DNA of 64,000 nt, taken from Candidatus Bathyarchaeota archaeon. GTDB taxonomy: Archaea; Thermoproteota; Bathyarchaeia; Bathyarchaeales; Bathycorpusculaceae. Shown here piece by piece: positions 27,439 through 37,488 of the stretch; positions within the stretch are counted from its first letter, which is position 1, and each line of letters begins with the position of its first letter. Location: the NCBI GenBank assembly GCA_963782525.1, contig CAWAKC010000010.1, positions 160,001-224,000 on the forward strand, written 5' to 3'. The notes beneath the pieces were generated by a model. The model made no database searches, was not told the DNA's origin, and was given only the letters and a program-made list of their open reading frames with translations. Made by a program: the position numbers and the translations under genes.

Positions 27439-27906
27439 ATGGCAGAACCAAAAGATGGTCGACCTATTTTCTTCCCTAAAAAATTAGTTTTGCTCGGCAA
27501 TCTCGCCCTTTTTGTGTGGATTGTTCTTGACGCAGTCGCCTTTCTACTATTTGATTTAACGGTTGGCATTGTGTTTCTTTTGGCGACGCTGATCTTAATT
27601 TATGGTTTACTGCACATTCTCGGTTGTCTGCGACCATGCTACAACTGCATAAAATGCACTCACGGCATGGGACGCCTGGCTGCATTGTACTTTGGCAAAC
27701 GCATCTTCAAAGACTACAAATACAGCTACAAACTGCCCACAGCAATATTCTTCACTCTATATATTGGGGCGTTTCCAGCAGCATTCGCACTCTACTCAGC
27801 AGTCATAGATTTCACAGTCGTCAAAGTAGCGATTTTTGTGGTTCTTTTGGTGTTTACAATCTATAGCGCCTTAACCTGGCAAACCAAAAAACGCTCGAGC
27901 CCATAG
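27439..27906 (+). CDS. Four-TM membrane protein with Cys cluster
   Basis: Hydrophobic helices flanking CLRPCYNCIKC. Confidence 0.7.
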   Translation: MAEPKDGRPIFFPKKLVLLGNLALFVWIVLDAVAFLLFDLTVGIVFLLATLILIYGLLHILGCLRPCYNCIKCTHGMGRLAALYFGKRIFKDYKYSYKLPTAIFFTLYIGAFPAAFALYSAVIDFTVVKVAIFVVLLVFTIYSALTWQTKKRSSP

Positions 27907-27958: not shown

Positions 27959-28414
27959 CTATGCTAATTTTGCTCCGCAATTAATGCATTTGGAAGCGTC
28001 GGGTTGATTTTTGGTTCCGCAGTATGAGCAGATTATCATAGCTGGAGTTGTTTCTTTAATTAACGCTTGGGTTTGAGCTTTGTAGATGTTGTCTCTTATT
28101 GTTCTGTAGGCTTTTTCTGCGTCATCTTTAGGTACATCGATTAGTATTAGCTGTGGTGCTGCGGATTTGAAGGTGCATCTGATTGTTGAACGCAGTATTC
28201 CCTTGTCTATGATTACATTTTCAAAATCTAAGTAGTTGTAGTCAGTGAAGTCTTTTTTTAATCCGAGTGCGTGAGGATGGCGCAAGATTACTCTCTGGTT
28301 GGTTATAACGACCGAGTCAATGTCAATCGCGAGATGGTAAAACTTTTGTTTAATGTAGAGTTCAATGGTCTCGTTAGGATCAAGTATATCTTTCATATCA
28401 TCAGGAGTCGCCAT
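27959..28414 (-). CDS. Bacterial-PH-domain protein with C-terminal Zn ribbon
   Basis: VVITNQRVIL PH motif; CSYCG...CINCG. Confidence 0.8.
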   Translation of the reverse strand: MATPDDMKDILDPNETIELYIKQKFYHLAIDIDSVVITNQRVILRHPHALGLKKDFTDYNYLDFENVIIDKGILRSTIRCTFKSAAPQLILIDVPKDDAEKAYRTIRDNIYKAQTQALIKETTPAMIICSYCGTKNQPDASKCINCGAKLA

Positions 28415-28633: not shown

Positions 28634-30058
28634 ATGCGCAAATTGAATACAAAACAACCCAATGAACCAAATCCACTTGCATCTAAAAACCAGACAACTG
28701 AGCAATTAAACCACCAAGAACTAGCCCAATCAATACTTTCACCGTTTATCCACCTATTCAACATTAATGAAACGACGAAGTGCCTTTTCAACTCTTTAAC
28801 TCTAAAAAAAGTATACTTAACCAATGATATGTACGCTAAGCTTTTAACAGATCTAAGTTTGGGAAACCGCAGTAAAGACGTTGAAAGTTTAATCGATCTG
28901 AAATTTATAGTGCCTCGAGGTTTTGATGAGATAAAAGTGTTTGACAGCATTGCAAACAGCGTGCTCAGAAAAAAACCTTCAACCAACCTTGCATACATTT
29001 TGGTAACGGACTTTTGCAACTTCAGATGCGGTTACTGCTTCATTGAAAACTCTCTAAAAGGGCCAAGCATTTCAATGTCTAAGGATTTGGCAGATAAAGT
29101 CATAAACGTTCTGATCAACGAAGCAAAACAAGTCCCAGAATACAGAGTCACATTTTATGGAGGAGAACCATTCAGCAACAGCGAAATCGTCTTCCACATC
29201 ATCGAAAAACTTGAGCAGGCAGCTAAAGACAAATTCAAATTTTCCTGCGTCACCAACGGAAGTCTAGTAACCGAAGATTTAGCTAAAAAACTCAAACAAC
29301 ACAACGTTACAGTAGGATTATCGCTTGACGGATGGGCCAACATCGACAAAAACCGTGTGTTTACCAATGGAAAAGAAACCTTTTACTCAGCACTTAAAGC
29401 GTTAACGCTCTTAAAAGAAGCCGAAGTAAATGTGGGAATATCATGCACAATCACAAAACAGAACTACCAATACGCAGAAGAAGTAGTTGAATTTATCCAA
29501 AAATTAGGAATCAGAACCATAGGGTTCAATTTGTTAACTAGACTCAAAGAGCCAAGCGAATATGAAGTTCCAGACCCAAAACAACTCGCCCACCACCTCT
29601 TTAACGCATACTTAAAAGCAAACGACTTGCACATGTTTGAAGATCGCATAGGGAATCGGCGAGCAAATTATTTTTTCAAAGAAATATTTCATTTGTACGA
29701 TTGCCCCGCGTTTGGTCAACTAATATTTTTTTCACCAGCTGGAACAGTTGGACCTTGCCACGCGTTCTATCCGTCAGGAAAATATCAAATTCCAATTAAA
29801 GATAATTTGAAAGTCCCAGAAGAACCATTGTTTTACAAATGGTTGGAACTTGGCACCCTAAAGAATAAAGACTGCATGAGGTGTCCTGCCATCGGAATTT
29901 GCGGAGGAGGATGCGCATACGATATATACGTTAAAACAGGTCAACTTGGCATCAAAGAAGACTATTTTTGCACCTTTCAAAATGAAATACTCAAGCTCCT
30001 TCTATCCTACAATTTCCTGATGACCCCTCAAAATAAGCGCAGAAAAACGAAAAGTTGA
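28634..30058 (+). CDS. Radical SAM/SPASM-domain peptide maturase with probable N-terminal RRE
   Basis: CNFRCGYC, FYGGEP, VTNG, SLDG; seven-Cys SPASM region DCPAF...GPCH...CMRCPAIGICGGGC...FC; N-terminal beta/helix extension. Confidence 0.9.
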   Translation: MRKLNTKQPNEPNPLASKNQTTEQLNHQELAQSILSPFIHLFNINETTKCLFNSLTLKKVYLTNDMYAKLLTDLSLGNRSKDVESLIDLKFIVPRGFDEIKVFDSIANSVLRKKPSTNLAYILVTDFCNFRCGYCFIENSLKGPSISMSKDLADKVINVLINEAKQVPEYRVTFYGGEPFSNSEIVFHIIEKLEQAAKDKFKFSCVTNGSLVTEDLAKKLKQHNVTVGLSLDGWANIDKNRVFTNGKETFYSALKALTLLKEAEVNVGISCTITKQNYQYAEEVVEFIQKLGIRTIGFNLLTRLKEPSEYEVPDPKQLAHHLFNAYLKANDLHMFEDRIGNRRANYFFKEIFHLYDCPAFGQLIFFSPAGTVGPCHAFYPSGKYQIPIKDNLKVPEEPLFYKWLELGTLKNKDCMRCPAIGICGGGCAYDIYVKTGQLGIKEDYFCTFQNEILKLLLSYNFLMTPQNKRRKTKS

Positions 30059-30206
30059 AAACTTTCATCTCCAAACAGCAAGAAACCCGCGACCAAGCTA
30101 AATCAAAAAAGCCCGGCAAACAATTGCCAATCTACCAATGTAATAAATGAAAAAGACATGCACACTTTTGACCTTAACTTTGCGCCAGATTAATTTTTAC
30201 AATAAA

Positions 30207-30214
30207 TATAAATA
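30207..30214 (+). promoter_or_regulatory. Putative TATA box for the precursor gene
   Basis: TATAAATA about 35-40 nt upstream of the TTG starts, with GTGAT SD-like motif at 30238. Confidence 0.45.
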
Positions 30215-30241
30215 TTGTTACTCACTACAACAATGTAGTGA

Positions 30242-30685
30242 TTGTTTTTGTCAAAAAATAAATCAAAAGCTAAAGCTCCCTCCAAAAAACCCACTTCTAC
30301 AATGCTTAATAAAAATCAAACCCGCGCGGCGCCAAAAAAAATGACCCCAGCCCAAACTAAACGGTTAAAAACAATTTTAGCAAAAATGCCACCTATCGAG
30401 AAAATAGATCCTGCAATGTATGCGAAGCTACAGTCAACGATTCATGATGTAGTAGTTAAAGCGTTGCCTGAATACCAGCAATGGGTGGGCGCAAACCTGG
30501 TAGCTGATGACTGTCCGACACCCTTGTGTAGCTCATGCGGCAACGATTGCCCAACTCCGTTATGTAGTTCATGTGGAAATGACTGTCCGACGCCAATTAA
30601 AGACATTGATGATCTTGTCAATTCGGCTGTCGAAAAGGCAATGACCGCGGCAATTCGTCAAGCTTTGGAAAAACAATTCAAATAA
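30242..30685 (+). CDS. Putative RiPP precursor with repeated Cys-rich core (DCPTPLCSSCGN x2.4)
   Basis: Lies between two radical SAM genes; Lys-rich N-terminus, helical leader, repeated core, helical follower. Start may be TTG 30248. Confidence 0.75.
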   Translation: MFLSKNKSKAKAPSKKPTSTMLNKNQTRAAPKKMTPAQTKRLKTILAKMPPIEKIDPAMYAKLQSTIHDVVVKALPEYQQWVGANLVADDCPTPLCSSCGNDCPTPLCSSCGNDCPTPIKDIDDLVNSAVEKAMTAAIRQALEKQFK

Positions 30686-30786
30686 AGATTATTTTCCAAC
30701 CAGAAACACAAACGCTCAATGAACAACAGTTAGCAAAATATTTCGCCTATTGCGCTATAACGCAATAGGTATTCTAAAAACCCCCT

Positions 30787-30987: not shown

Positions 30988-32577
30988 ATGCGTGTAATTC
31001 TTTGTATCCCTCCAGTTTCTTCGTTAGTTCCTTATCCTGCAATTCCATACTTAACAAGTAGTCTGAAGGCAAATAATCAAAAGGTTAGTACTTTTGATCT
31101 GAACATTAAGGCTTTTAATTCAACTCTTTTTCGCATAGGCGTGGATATTAAGCCCGGAAAAATTTTACGTAACATTAATCCTGGCGTAAGCGCGAAATGG
31201 ACCAAAGTTCCTGAGGCAAATATTTACTCGACCATGCGAGAGAGCAAAGAAATTTTCGAAGAAATTATGTCAGAAGAGGCGGCTGATCAATTAGGTTGTC
31301 CCCATTCAAACTTAAAGTCCAGATATACCATAACCACAGAAGTAAAACAGCAAATAATTTCGGATGTTTGGAAAACTTGTAACAATTGGTTATCGGAGCT
31401 TGCCAGTGATACCAAAGAACAAAGTATTATAGGCTTCCATGTAATTAGTCAAACTGGATTGTTGTGGAGCATACTTCTTTCGCGAAAATTAAAGAAAATT
31501 CTTCCCAGGATTTTAACAGTCTTGGGAGGTCCGGCATTCCTCGCATGGGGCAAAGTTCTCTCTACCCATCCCGAAATTGACATAATAGTTCGAGGGGAAG
31601 GCGAGACAACAATCTCTGAAATAGCAAATTTCTATGACGGAAGCTTAGAATCAATAAAAGGAATCAACGGAATTTCATACCGAAACAGAGAAAATAAAAT
31701 TATTACCGTTGCGGACCGCCCATTAATAAAATCTCTTAATGCTTTGCCTTTTCCCAATTATGATGATTTGCCATTAAAAGAATACCCTCAGAACAAGTTC
31801 GAGATGCCTATAATTCCAGTTGTCGGCTCTAGAGGATGCATTGGAAACTGCGTTTTTTGTGTTGAAAAACGCTTATGGGGGAACACCTATCGGATGCGTA
31901 CACCTGAAAATATCTTATCCGAATTCAAAAATATTAAAGAAAAATGTGGGCCTTCTTTTATTCGCTTCAACGACAGTTTAATTAATTGTAATATAAAGTC
32001 GCTAGAAACATTCTGCAATTTATTGATTAAAGAGAATATCAGAATGCAGTGGATGGGTAATGCTCGAATCCGACCTGAGATGACCGATAAATTGCTTAAA
32101 AAAATGCACCAAGCAGGTTGTGTAGGATTATGGTATGGCATAGAATCTGGGTCTCAAAGAATATTGAATAAAATGAAAAAAGGGTATAATTTGGAAACGG
32201 CGAAACAAGTGATCCAAGATACTGCAAGAAACTCCATTCGCGTTCTAATATTCATGATAGTGGATTTTCCGGGAGAAACACCACACGATTTTAAACAATC
32301 AGTTGACTTCTTACAGCAGAATCAAGTTAACATTGATCAAGTCAGCATTTCACGTTTCGGGATCTTGCATGATTCAGAAATATCTCTCAACCCACAAAAA
32401 TATGGACTTAAAGTTACTGAGAAAAAAGTGGGCGTAAATTACAATTATACATATTCACCTAGACCCATAAGCAATCGATATGAAATCTTAGATTCTGCCT
32501 GGAAGCATTTGAGCATGCTAAAAACGGCGAACCACGTTAGAAGAAATCCTGTAAAAATAATCGTTCCTTATTTCTGA
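30988..32577 (+). CDS. Cobalamin (B12)-binding radical SAM protein (class B methyltransferase-like)
   Basis: N-terminal B12 domain (IPP...AIPYLTSSL, VLGGP, VRGEGE), GSRGCIGNCVFC, YGIESGSQRIL, FPGET. Confidence 0.9.
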   Translation: MRVILCIPPVSSLVPYPAIPYLTSSLKANNQKVSTFDLNIKAFNSTLFRIGVDIKPGKILRNINPGVSAKWTKVPEANIYSTMRESKEIFEEIMSEEAADQLGCPHSNLKSRYTITTEVKQQIISDVWKTCNNWLSELASDTKEQSIIGFHVISQTGLLWSILLSRKLKKILPRILTVLGGPAFLAWGKVLSTHPEIDIIVRGEGETTISEIANFYDGSLESIKGINGISYRNRENKIITVADRPLIKSLNALPFPNYDDLPLKEYPQNKFEMPIIPVVGSRGCIGNCVFCVEKRLWGNTYRMRTPENILSEFKNIKEKCGPSFIRFNDSLINCNIKSLETFCNLLIKENIRMQWMGNARIRPEMTDKLLKKMHQAGCVGLWYGIESGSQRILNKMKKGYNLETAKQVIQDTARNSIRVLIFMIVDFPGETPHDFKQSVDFLQQNQVNIDQVSISRFGILHDSEISLNPQKYGLKVTEKKVGVNYNYTYSPRPISNRYEILDSAWKHLSMLKTANHVRRNPVKIIVPYF

Positions 32578-32647: not shown

Positions 32648-33856
32648 TTGAGAGATCTTAAAGTAGAGCAGCGATTATTTTTGCCAAAAAACAAATCAGC
32701 AACTAAACCCCTCTCTAAAAAACCTGCAAAAACTGGTTCTAAGACAAAAACAAATGCAGCTGTTTCAAAGAAAAGACAAACCAAGAAGCAAAATGAAACC
32801 CCACAAACACCTTTAGACAAAAATCAACCCTTTGCAAAATTGAACCCAGAAATATATGCGAAGCTTCAATCAACAATAGATGAACTCGTTATAGAAACCG
32901 TACCCAAGTACAATGAATGGTTAAATTCTGCATTTAGCGAAAAAATTATAGTAGAGGATTCTTCCAAGGACGACCCTGCCTCCATCAAAGTAGGCGGGTC
33001 TGGTGCGAAAATTGATCAGATGGTAGTTACTGCTTTCACTAAAGTTATTAATGAGGCAATTAAGAAAGCTTTGGAAAAAAATGATCATTCGGGAATTATG
33101 GAAAAATGGTTCAAAAAGAAATTTTGTGATGACCTTTCTGACATTCGTCCTGAAAGCAGGAATTATTACAAGTATTGTGTAAATAATTTCGTTACAAATT
33201 TTTTTTCTAAAGACCGAATATCGGGAAAGAAGATTCTCGACTTTGGATGTGGCCCAGGATACTATTCCGCGATTTTGGCCCAACGTGGATCATACGTAAT
33301 TGGAATTGACAGAAGTGCGTTTCTAATTCACAAAGCAAACGAACTCAAACAAAAACTAGGACTTAAAAATGTAGATTTCATTCAAGGAGATTTTCTTGAT
33401 TTTGCGGCAAATGTGATGCCTAAGGAGTTTGACTACATCATTGCAGTAGACACGATTGTGAGTTTTGACTATTCAAGACAAAAACATAACCATGAGGAAT
33501 TTTCCCAAGCATTGAGCAGAATCAACAGAATTCTGAAAGATCGTGGCAGATTCTTTATTATTGAAGCGCATCCTTTTTTTGGTCAACTTGCTAAAGGAAT
33601 AAAATTCTCAAGCGAAGGACATTTTCACGGTCGTTTACCCAATTATAAAATAGAATATAAAGGTAAAAATAATCCTCACCATTGGTTTACTCTTAACGAA
33701 ATAACCAGTGCTCTTAGTGAGAACTGCTTAGCAATTTGTAGGATTTATGAGCCCGATCCAAGCGTTGAATTAAAAAAAGAAAACGCCCAATTATTCAAAT
33801 TTTTCCTAAAGTATCCCCACATGATTGTATACGAAATATGCAAAGTAAGATCCTGA
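32648..33856 (+). CDS. Class I SAM-dependent methyltransferase fused to a precursor-homologous N-terminal domain
   Basis: KILDFGCGPG, GIDRS, FIQGD, LKDRGRF; N-terminus shares YAKLQSTI and ID..V..A..K....AI..ALEK with 30242-30685. Probable start TTG 32681. Confidence 0.85.
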   Translation: MRDLKVEQRLFLPKNKSATKPLSKKPAKTGSKTKTNAAVSKKRQTKKQNETPQTPLDKNQPFAKLNPEIYAKLQSTIDELVIETVPKYNEWLNSAFSEKIIVEDSSKDDPASIKVGGSGAKIDQMVVTAFTKVINEAIKKALEKNDHSGIMEKWFKKKFCDDLSDIRPESRNYYKYCVNNFVTNFFSKDRISGKKILDFGCGPGYYSAILAQRGSYVIGIDRSAFLIHKANELKQKLGLKNVDFIQGDFLDFAANVMPKEFDYIIAVDTIVSFDYSRQKHNHEEFSQALSRINRILKDRGRFFIIEAHPFFGQLAKGIKFSSEGHFHGRLPNYKIEYKGKNNPHHWFTLNEITSALSENCLAICRIYEPDPSVELKKENAQLFKFFLKYPHMIVYEICKVRS

Positions 33857-34046: not shown

Positions 34047-35210
34047 TTGAAGAGGTGGACTGGGAGCAACATTTTTTTCCAGCTGCTCGTTTTATATATG
34101 CGATTGAGTATGTCGGTTTTCCTTTTTGACCAAGAAACGATAGGTATGATTCGCTACATTCTGGCACTTCGACGTTTTAAGGAGTATTCAGTTGGACCTC
34201 AAGGCTTAGATGAGTATCTTTGTGCCGTATCTTTCAATAGGGTGCTAATCCAGACGGGGCTAAAATTTTCCAAGTTTCAGAAAGATAATCCGGGAGATAT
34301 CCGAGTGTATGAGGTTATCCGTTTCTTAGAGCAGAAAAGCCACATAAATCCTCCAACGGCGCAGAAACTGAGAGAATACGTGGATTTTTATGACTCCCTG
34401 ATGAATACCAATTGTCAAACAGCTCCAATAAAGGCTAATTCTAAAGCTCAGGAAATCTTGCGGTTTCTCTGTATTGAAGCGGGCTTGGACCAAGATGAGG
34501 AACTCAAAAATAGGACATTCGAGGACATAGCAACTCTTGCAACAAGGCAATCTGCTGCAAACCAGAATTACGAGAAGCTTGTTGAATCTGATTTTGACAA
34601 TTTTGATAAACTCTACGAGAAGTGTCCGTCTTTGAAGCTGGAAATAGAAAAAAGATTAACGACCTCATTGCGGGGTGCACAAATATCGGGTTTCACTCCT
34701 AATACTGGTGGGATATGGCTGCCTTTTGTTACGCTTGAAACAAATGATAGTAGAGCACATATTGATAGGGCAAGTGTTGGAGTAATCTTTACGCCTCTTG
34801 ATGTTAGGATAGGATTGAATTTTGGTAGTCAGGCTCACAAGTTTAGGATGAGATATTATGGAATGCTTTTGAATGGGGAATTGATGAATGAGTTGGAGTT
34901 TCTTAACCGCAGAGATACGGGATACTGTTTCTGTGACACTTTTTGGAATTATCATATAAGGAATTTGCAGTCTCTTCAATGGTGTCTTACTCTTTATGGC
35001 AGTACTAAGATTAGTATTGAAAACGCTATTGAAGAGACTAGACAGCTTGAGGGAACTTTTTTGACGGCAAACAAGTACTTAATTAGTAAAGTGATTAGGA
35101 GAAGTCGGGAAGATTTTGCTTATGTTTTAAACGGACTTGTTGATGAGATTTCTAAGACTTTAAATGAACTTTATCCAACAATAGAGCGTATTAACAAAGC
35201 TCAAGCCTGA
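34047..35210 (+). CDS. Hypothetical protein
   Basis: 387-aa ORF with no motif recognised; true start is probably downstream. Confidence 0.65.
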   Translation: MKRWTGSNIFFQLLVLYMRLSMSVFLFDQETIGMIRYILALRRFKEYSVGPQGLDEYLCAVSFNRVLIQTGLKFSKFQKDNPGDIRVYEVIRFLEQKSHINPPTAQKLREYVDFYDSLMNTNCQTAPIKANSKAQEILRFLCIEAGLDQDEELKNRTFEDIATLATRQSAANQNYEKLVESDFDNFDKLYEKCPSLKLEIEKRLTTSLRGAQISGFTPNTGGIWLPFVTLETNDSRAHIDRASVGVIFTPLDVRIGLNFGSQAHKFRMRYYGMLLNGELMNELEFLNRRDTGYCFCDTFWNYHIRNLQSLQWCLTLYGSTKISIENAIEETRQLEGTFLTANKYLISKVIRRSREDFAYVLNGLVDEISKTLNELYPTIERINKAQA

Positions 35211-37188: not shown

Positions 37189-37488
37189 CTATGGTTTGGT
37201 AAGCACGATTTCTATTGTTGAAACCATTCGTGATCTACTTTCGCCTTCTCTTGGCGGCATCTCTTCCGTTGCTATCTGGATTTTGCTAACTTTCAGGTCC
37301 TTTATGAAGCGATTTCTCGTTATTTCAGCGGCGTCAACTGCTGTAGTTATTGCCTGTCCTCTAGCTTTCAAAGTTATTTCTTTAGCGTTGCTTGCAGACA
37401 GACCTGTAATTATCGCTAGAACATAATCCATGGGCATTTTATTTCCGACGAAAACAATTCCCGATCTTTCAACCATTTCATTCACCAT
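37189..37488 (-). CDS. albA: DNA/RNA-binding protein Alba
   Basis: VFVGNK.PMDYVLA, ITLKARGQAITTAVDAAEI, VSTIEIVL. Confidence 0.95.
   Translation of the reverse strand: MVNEMVERSGIVFVGNKMPMDYVLAIITGLSASNAKEITLKARGQAITTAVDAAEITRNRFIKDLKVSKIQIATEEMPPREGESRSRMVSTIEIVLTKP

Follow-up and report, generated by a model that had tools for sequence, protein, structure and literature searches.

A two-unit cysteine core in a Bathyarchaeia gene cassette: a probable substrate of neighbouring radical S-adenosylmethionine enzymes

In a 64,000-nucleotide stretch of a Candidatus Bathyarchaeota archaeon genome (contig CAWAKC010000010.1, positions 160,001 to 224,000; hereafter, the window), a small gene spells the same cysteine-containing 12-residue peptide twice in succession with mostly different codons, which raises the question of what keeps both copies unchanged and what the encoded protein is for. 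The gene is the second of four co-directional genes, the others encoding a radical S-adenosylmethionine (SAM)/SPASM peptide-maturase homologue (hereafter, SPASM enzyme), a B12-binding radical SAM enzyme (B12 enzyme) and a class I methyltransferase. We propose, with a probability of about 0.65, that its 147-residue product is the ribosomally made substrate of the surrounding cassette, a ranthipeptide-like or CrpA-like protein that is cross-linked through its cysteines and then methylated.

The repeat was first described in a first-pass annotation made from the sequence alone. Translation confirmed that both units (Table 1) encode DCPTPLCSSCGN, and a scripted recount gave the same 10 differing codons out of 12, each changed at the third base, with 26 of 36 bases identical and no amino-acid change; the count of seven cysteines was also correct, and these make up 4.8% of the protein (7/147). 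Because 23 of the 108 possible single-base changes to a unit are synonymous, the probability that 10 random substitutions would all be silent is ~2e-7 under a simple model that ignores multiple hits and transition bias. When codons were drawn independently from the codon usage of the window, 7.8 of 12 were expected to differ, with a probability of 0.14 for at least 10. Ten differing codons are thus what saturation gives, and selection for DNA dissimilarity between the units, which we had considered and dropped, is not needed; the silent sites fit complete synonymous saturation. Tandem Repeats Finder reported no repeat in 30200–30750 at a minimum score of 30: the repeat exists at the protein level only and is invisible in the DNA. 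Codon evidence of this kind shows with unusual clarity that selection maintains each unit separately.

For comparison we took 29 loci of the family from species-representative genomes and counted 28 of them, which stem from 18 genome records; the remaining one, L033 (E 3e-4), had no match in the context search and was left out. Units with the identical peptide DCPTPLCSSCGN occur in six genes (those of the window, L005, L006, L010, L011 and L016), and across their 12 within-gene unit pairs 4 to 10 of the 12 codons differ (4 to 11 nucleotides, mean 7.67) with no amino-acid difference. Among the three genes with three units, same-position units of different species are on average 4.89 nucleotides apart (9 pairs) and different-position units 7.83 (18 pairs), and the second units of L006 and L010 differ by a single nucleotide. 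Since same-position units are closer across species, the duplication and the units' own codon histories predate those species. Silent saturation without amino-acid change, together with these position-specific codon signatures, bears out the earlier description of an old repeat under strong purifying selection. The accompanying claim that recent slippage is not involved holds for the window gene but not for the family, in which units are 0–1 nucleotides apart in a paralogue elsewhere in this genome (contig C3), identical in L008 and in L022, and 2 nucleotides apart in L025. Copy number is therefore still changing (0, 1, 2, 3, 4 and 5 units in 2, 22, 58, 31, 1 and 1 of 115 distinct proteins, as counted with a scripted pattern), and the family both makes new units and keeps old ones unchanged. 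Unit 1 of the window gene is nearest unit 3 of the three-unit genes and unit 2 is nearest their unit 2, a matching of particular units that we rejected as too noisy with 12 silent sites.

Conservation within the core was counted over 240 units from the 115 distinct proteins, with the three cysteines fixed by the search pattern and hence not counted as evidence. The proline at position 3 is present in 239 of 240 units, the asparagine at position 12 in 230, and a serine after the second cysteine in 220; Asn12 is followed by Asp in 154 units, by Gln in 75 and by Glu in 7 (236 of 240), and SCGND (142 units) covaries against AC[S/D/A]NQ (72 units). The core is well conserved across homologues, and this, together with the conserved enzyme cassette around the gene, supports the first-pass annotation in calling the protein a functional, sequence-specific substrate. 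Distant members (P0123, P0126, P0135) keep the flanks and change the core, for example to CPTPICDCNT units or a CMECDCDCTNCSSCGSCGSCIC stretch; conserved flanks around a variable core are the usual leader/core pattern.

The same alignments bear on the phase of the repeat. Of 108 array endings listed, 105 read CPTP. In the first module, 91 of 114 proteins have the cysteine that precedes the proline, 13 have I, T, S, G or F in its place, and in 10 it is shifted or altered in some other way; later modules have a cysteine there in 148 of 152 cases, and the last module closes with one in 107 of 114. Frequent loss of the first cysteine and retention of the later ones fit a cysteine that works with the module before it, and suggest PxxxC-S-x-C-x-N-[D/Q/E]-C as the working module, present twice in the window gene. 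The sequence DCPTP after unit 2 had been taken for a partial third unit; it is present as described, but that phase is arbitrary, and the stretch is better read as the piece that closes module two, which would make the very first cysteine a leftover of the repeat. Cysteine counts per protein follow 3n+1, and one-module members (for example P0100, P0117 and P0120) have exactly four.

The gene order around the substrate gene recurs. A SPASM enzyme gene ends ≤300 bp from the substrate gene in 23 of the 28 loci (in L032 it lies 2.4 kb away), the B12 enzyme is present in 18 and the methyltransferase fusion in 20, and in eight loci another substrate gene stands between these two enzyme genes. Four loci are orphans with no enzyme genes (L009, L012, L026 and L027), and each of their genome records also has a full cassette elsewhere (L015, L010, L008 and L005, respectively). 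We scanned the flanks of six loci chosen among the cassette-bearing ones (44 open reading frames, ORFs) and found nothing in common between them; what is inherited together is therefore the cassette of four or five genes. Neither these flanks nor the window neighbours yielded a peptidase gene, and ABC ATPase genes occur in two of the scanned loci, each ~4 kb from the cassette. In L008 (3470–4120; 13123–14583) and L022 (4489–5763) the cassette is flanked by transposase genes (DUF772, DDE_Tnp_1_6).

The chemistry that we infer for the cassette runs as follows. The SPASM enzyme would recognize the conserved flanks of the substrate, and its 5'-deoxyadenosyl radical would join cysteine sulfurs to side-chain carbons of nearby acceptors, the best candidates being the conserved Asn and the Asp, Gln or Glu that follows it and forms C-x-x-[D/Q/E]. 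The expected product is a ladder of small thioether rings, one set per module. The B12 enzyme would then C-methylate unactivated carbons, and the class I methyltransferase, guided to the substrate or the enzyme complex by the leader/follower scaffold that it carries itself, would add further methyl groups. The cassette has neither a protease nor an exporter travelling with it, and the substrate's follower is conserved, so the product may remain a modified small protein instead of being cleaved and secreted as a peptide. Two precedents are relevant. The archaeal enzyme CrpC is reported to put ranthionine links on CrpA, a cysteine-repeat protein with C-X-X-Q/D motifs (PMC13692751), and PapB is described as joining Cys to Asp or Glu, accepting 0–6 intervening residues and needing a carboxylate (PMC9413430). 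These published cases make cysteine cross-linking of the substrate plausible, and the C-x-N-[D/Q/E] motif of the core is itself a C-X-X-Q/D motif, found in the 236 units counted above. Asn-Cys thioethers are formed by NxxcB-type enzymes, and the conserved Asn is a second acceptor candidate.

The SPASM enzyme resembles peptide maturases. Its best NCBIfam matches (bits/cut-off) are the FibroRumin maturase (179.3/400), PapB (150.5/340), CefB (126.3/600) and the QhpD-type family (113.8/453); AmcB (104.2 bits), anaerobic sulfatase maturase (103.1), SCIFF maturase (102.1/425), TIGR04463 (94.3/525), GrrM/OscB (93.8) and YhhB (92.7) also match. The nearest solved structure is CteB (5wgg, E 4.8e-24), and the anSME structures 4k37 and 4k36 match too. 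The CX3CX2C cysteines (C128, C132, C135) are invariant in 16 of 16 orthologues, as are seven C-terminal cysteines in the pattern C357...C375...C414-x2-C417-x5-C423-x3-C427...C446, and the NCBIfam SPASM-maturase models align to about residue 453. The cluster motif has roughly 120 residues before it, and the alignment to the FibroRumin model starts at residue 36. An AlphaFold2 model built with 16 close orthologues was poor (mean predicted local distance difference test score, pLDDT, 52.4; residues 1–64 <50), and this genome has no other close copy of the enzyme. For the B12 enzyme, the best NCBIfam matches are likewise below cut-off (ApyD 144.2/750; HpnJ 141.1/577.6; TIGR03975, a C-methyltransferase of peptides made ribosomally and modified post-translationally (RiPPs), 139.8/281.85), and PDB matches include 9ccb (E 2.2e-19) and CysS (E 2.7e-10). 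By these comparisons it resembles the C-methyltransferases ApyD, TIGR03975 and CysS, with a fitting domain layout and scores under the cut-offs.

The methyltransferase links the cassette to its substrate in a second way. BLASTP aligned residues 10–144 of the 402-residue methyltransferase ORF with the flanks of the substrate (34% identity, E 4e-19), and within this N-terminal domain of 135 residues, conserved in 14 orthologues, a short cysteine-free linker stands in for the core. The substrate's follower helix is also found in this fusion protein, and an LDFGCGPGY motif is present in the methyltransferase. The ORF can be read from TTG 32648 (32648–33856), and the orthologues begin at the position of 32675. 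The domain may serve to dock the methyltransferase, either to the substrate or to the SPASM enzyme. A structure prediction of the fusion protein with the substrate scored 0.43 (best of three controls, 0.00), with runs agreeing in at least 68% of contacts and a partner pLDDT of at least 54. Of 80 solved complexes, 58 reach the mark used, as do 2 of 110 mismatched pairs, counts that hold only roughly here given that we built our own alignments; only 7 of the 80 solved complexes passed at a score ≤0.60, but both passing mismatches did. This is weak support for a fusion–substrate pairing, and only a lead, because the two chains are homologous and homology alone could make the model pair them. The fullest version of our proposal, in which the methyltransferase docks by like-with-like pairing of core-less and core-bearing leader/follower scaffolds, the product is a thioether-stapled, methylated intracellular protein, and the cassette is nearly confined to one soil and peat Bathyarchaeia genus and moves as a unit, seems to us doubtful when all its parts are taken together.

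Several points weigh against a cross-linked and methylated product. Gln, which lacks the carboxylate that PapB needs, occupies the proposed acceptor position in 75 of the 240 units, and each module has three cysteines for two well-conserved polar acceptors. The SPASM enzyme scores below the curated cut-off of every named NCBIfam maturase family; the Pfam SPASM model has no match on it, even at E≤10 on the C-terminal 152 residues; and no RiPP recognition element (RRE) domain was detected by Pfam in residues 1–129 at E≤10, where the structure model is too poor to judge. The complex score is weak, and the homology of the two chains could itself yield the pairing. Lastly, C-x-x-C-x-x-x-C-P in the module looks like a portion of the motif with which ferredoxins bind clusters, which makes metal binding possible.

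This last point opens an alternative in which the gene encodes a small metal- or Fe-S-binding protein that uses its cysteine triads, perhaps with Asp/Gln/Glu or Asn, as an electron carrier, cluster donor or sensor for the two radical SAM enzymes, its cysteines not being covalently modified. The ferredoxin motif is CxxCxxCxxxCP, whose end the module resembles; the spacing in the substrate is C-x4-C-x2-C-x3-C-P instead, and the protein matched neither Fer4 nor any other metal-binding Pfam family even at E≤10. The four cysteines of one-module members would suit a metal site, but the count across the family rises as 3n+1 and not 4n, and the core is rich in Pro, Ser and Gly and predicted to be disordered. 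Most archaeal cysteine-rich proteins are predicted metal ligands, according to PMC13692751. A cofactor protein would leave two peptide-type radical SAM enzymes and a methyltransferase with no nearby encoded substrate, and the scaffold common to the substrate and the methyltransferase would be hard to explain. On balance we think this explanation improbable.

We hold it about equally improbable that the protein is the substrate of the cassette and that the SPASM enzyme performs other chemistry on it, such as oxidation of Cys or Ser to formylglycine, epimerisation, or C-C or C-O cross-linking. With all family matches below cut-off, room for such chemistry is left by the hits to anaerobic sulfatase maturase (with the anSME structures 4k37 and 4k36), cyclophane-forming AmcB, GrrM/OscB and YhhB. 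The four best matches point the other way: the FibroRumin maturase, PapB and the QhpD type, the latter two of which form thioethers, and CefB, a maturase of peptides with a cysteine at every fifth position; the core has no aromatic residue for a cyclophane, and with three conserved cysteines next to conserved Asn and Asp/Gln/Glu, each module is like the thioether substrates already known. Least probable of all is a multi-core precursor from which each 12-residue unit is cut out as a separate peptide and in which copy number (0–5) sets the dose, for although units within a gene are often identical in protein, they adjoin one another without a spacer or recognition site, the six flanks scanned above and the window neighbours showed no peptidase gene, the follower helix is conserved, and the closing CPTP and the dispensable first cysteine suggest modules that share residues across unit borders.

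Table 1. Positions of the cassette genes, the parts of the substrate gene and its paralogue (window coordinates unless another contig is named)
Feature	Coordinates	Strand	Description
Conserved upstream element	30200..30250	+	A/T-rich TATA-like box 30200-30216, then GTAGTGATTGTTTTTG 30235-30250
Substrate gene	30242-30685, stop included	+	147 aa from TTG 30242; 145 aa if TTG 30248 is the start
N-terminal 'leader'	30242..30508	+	Lys-rich disordered tail (predicted), residues 1-29; predicted helices 36-48, 52-55, 57-85
Cys-rich core, whole	30509..30595	+	both 12-residue units and closing DCPTP, in frame of ORF 30242-30685
Unit 1 of core	30509-30544	+	GAC TGT CCG ACA CCC TTG TGT AGC TCA TGC GGC AAC, encoding DCPTPLCSSCGN
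Unit 2 of core	30545-30580	+	GAT TGC CCA ACT CCG TTA TGT AGT TCA TGT GGA AAT, encoding DCPTPLCSSCGN
Closing DCPTP	30581-30595	+	GAC TGT CCG ACG CCA, directly after unit 2
C-terminal 'follower' helix, residues 120-145	30596..30682	+	predicted helix, block pLDDT 75-79
Radical SAM/SPASM peptide-maturase homologue	28634..30058	+	474 aa; Pfam Radical_SAM 78.6 bits (cut-off 29.5) and Fer4_12
B12-binding radical SAM enzyme	30988..32577	+	529 aa; Pfam Radical_SAM 60.3 bits, over its cut-off; B12-binding 28.9, under 32.1 cut-off
Methyltransferase N-terminal domain	32675..33079	+	homologous to substrate leader and follower, no Cys core
Class I SAM-dependent methyltransferase domain	33080..33856	+	Methyltransf_31 80.4 bits, residues 192-308, and related models
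Orphan paralogue	contig C3 83134-83625 (locus L002 1279-1869)	-	196 aa; three DCPVEICSSCGN units, long basic C-terminal extension

The anatomy of the substrate is that of a core between two conserved flanks. Many leader columns of the family alignment are nearly invariant, and in the follower A129, A133, I138, R139, A141 and L142 are each conserved in ≥90% of the family. AlphaFold2, run with 91 sequences, gave a mean pLDDT of 64.4 and helices of moderate confidence: 10-residue block means were 75–89 over residues 31–80 and 67 over residues 81–90, and pLDDT fell below 50 at residues 1–29 and, in the core, at residues 90–92, 94–101 and 103–116. The N-terminal tail (1–29) and the core (90–116) are thus predicted to be disordered. 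The protein matched no Pfam or NCBIfam family, Foldseek of its model against the PDB returned no match at E≤10, and a search of the ESM Atlas gave no usable match. At their N-termini the substrate, the orphan and the methyltransferase fusion all keep the Lys-rich tail (FLSKNKS...SKKP...; window 30242–30330; 32675–32790), which is predicted to be disordered.

The DNA before the gene is also conserved. The upstream element is nearly identical before most of the 33 family genes compared (loci L002–L032) and before the C3 paralogue, orphans included, and a related form precedes the methyltransferase fusions. It places GTGAT a few bases 5' of a TTG start, and from the sequence we read it as a putative promoter, a Shine-Dalgarno-like GTGAT and a TTG start; substrate genes, orphans and fusions seem to share this one promoter and start design. 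Two candidate TTG starts, 30242 and 30248, lie within GTAGTGATTGTTTTTG, and the true start may be 30248 rather than 30242.

How does the cassette compare with known systems? Among the closest is CrpA/CrpB/CrpC of Methanococcus voltae as described in PMC13692751, an analogy of layout: it too is archaeal and pairs a tandem cysteine-motif protein, larger than the usual RiPP precursor and carrying C-X-X-Q/D motifs, with a radical SAM/SPASM enzyme, and there too a second protein of the cluster shares the N-terminal region of the substrate, since CrpB, a neighbour of CrpC, shares the first 47 residues of CrpA (PMC13692751). It differs in that our SPASM enzyme falls outside the CrpC family TIGR04463 (94.3 bits versus a cut-off of 525), and the unit here has 12 residues in 0–5 copies and not 17 residues in 10 copies. 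The core of CrpA is C-terminal, whereas that of our substrate is internal and followed by a conserved helix; here the protein that shares the N-terminus is a methyltransferase, and a B12-radical SAM enzyme is present. The Crp study screened for ≥10% cysteine (PMC13692751), a level at which our substrate would have failed.

Ranthipeptide systems, represented by PapA/PapB (freyrasin) and SCIFF/CteB, are alike in having a maturase with CX3CX2C, to which the seven-cysteine pattern of our SPASM enzyme may add an auxiliary-cluster site, and a precursor in which short Cys-Xn-Asp/Glu motifs occur several times in line; among the matches of our SPASM enzyme, PapB ranks second in NCBIfam and CteB first in the PDB. 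The scores stay under the PapB and SCIFF maturase cut-offs (150.5/340 and 102.1/425), and relative to those systems ours differs in its C-x-x-[D/Q/E] spacing with frequent Gln, its three cysteines per module, a leader of ~90 residues, a follower, the lack of a protease or transporter travelling with the cassette, and an archaeal host. The idea of a product that stays a protein has a parallel in QhpC/QhpD, where a SPASM radical SAM enzyme installs Cys-to-Asp/Glu thioethers in the gamma subunit of quinohemoprotein amine dehydrogenase, a small protein that remains a protein. The SPASM enzyme here matches TIGR03906; our cassette differs in having no dehydrogenase subunits nearby, a score of 113.8 against a cut-off of 453, and a repetitive core. 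Borosins, as generally described, likewise join a RiPP methyltransferase and a precursor-derived sequence in one polypeptide, but here a leader and follower with no core are fused at the N-terminus, and a gene of its own encodes the substrate. The enzymes of borosin systems N-methylate the backbone and have another fold than ours, which is of the class I Rossmann type (Methyltransf_31).

Radical SAM peptide chemistry in archaea is, to our knowledge, almost uncharted. Cross-linking of a cysteine-repeat protein by an archaeal SPASM enzyme was first reported in September 2026 (PMC13692751). The present cassette offers another, unrelated example from archaea, and its substrate is compact and very regular (12-residue modules in 0–5 copies). 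Literature searches by core motif strings and by topic did not find the peptide family, and the main text of an archaeal RiPP survey makes no mention of 'Bathyarchae' (PMC12144867). A cysteine-rich substrate with a SPASM maturase is known; new are a core that is internal and precedes a conserved follower, the combination of enzymes, and a methyltransferase that bears a leader-like domain. That domain suggests a new, testable mode of recruitment for tailoring enzymes. Natural variation points to the residues that matter, namely three cysteines, Pro, Asn and Asp/Gln/Glu in each module, with the first cysteine dispensable. The hosts are uncultured, so heterologous expression is the only route, and the small size of the system makes it practical.

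The family is narrowly distributed. A search for substrate homologues returned 128 at E≤0.01, all unnamed or 'hypothetical' save two with evidently spurious labels. A profile search of 1.84 billion representatives found 17 clusters only, of which the sole one above 260 residues was the methyltransferase fusion P0132, and it showed no fusion of the substrate domain to another enzyme type; a separate search for longer, fused relatives found none, weak evidence given that it also missed the known methyltransferase fusion. The family is present in 22 of 331 other genomes of the window's GTDB family, 21 of them among 119 other species of the genus and one in a second genus, and in none of 300 other genomes sampled at class level, 14 of which belong to the same genus. 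The transposase flanks fit this patchy presence (21/119) and suggest that the cassette moves as a unit. A search of sequencing runs listed no RNA run, and the best DNA run contained 0.25 of the sequence words. Of the 28 loci, 27 are labelled Bathyarchaeota. The remaining one, L028, is a contig of 10,426 bases binned as the acidobacterium Candidatus Sulfotelmatobacter (Acidobacteriota); it carries a SPASM enzyme at 75% identity and a substrate gene, and is probably a mis-binned Bathyarchaeia contig.

This genome holds one cassette and one orphan paralogue. The orphan, on contig C3, lies far from any maturase, and by eye its neighbours look like a small antitoxin and PIN-type toxin pair. The window itself is archaeal, with an Alba gene at 37189–37488. 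Upstream of the cassette are a 155-residue membrane protein with a CLRPCYNCIKC stretch and no family (27439–27906, + strand) and a bacterial-PH and zinc-ribbon protein (27959–28414, − strand) shared only with L015; neither seems to be part of the cassette. Directly 3' of the methyltransferase lies a 387-residue ORF (34047–35210, + strand) with no Pfam or NCBIfam family and no counterpart in related loci. In several related loci cassette genes are split over frames, as in the B12 enzyme of L016 (8522–10113, in five pieces), in L030 (6387–7902 and 8575–9695) and in the SPASM enzymes of L006, L007, L020 and L021, which reflects either assembly errors of long-read bins or real decay.

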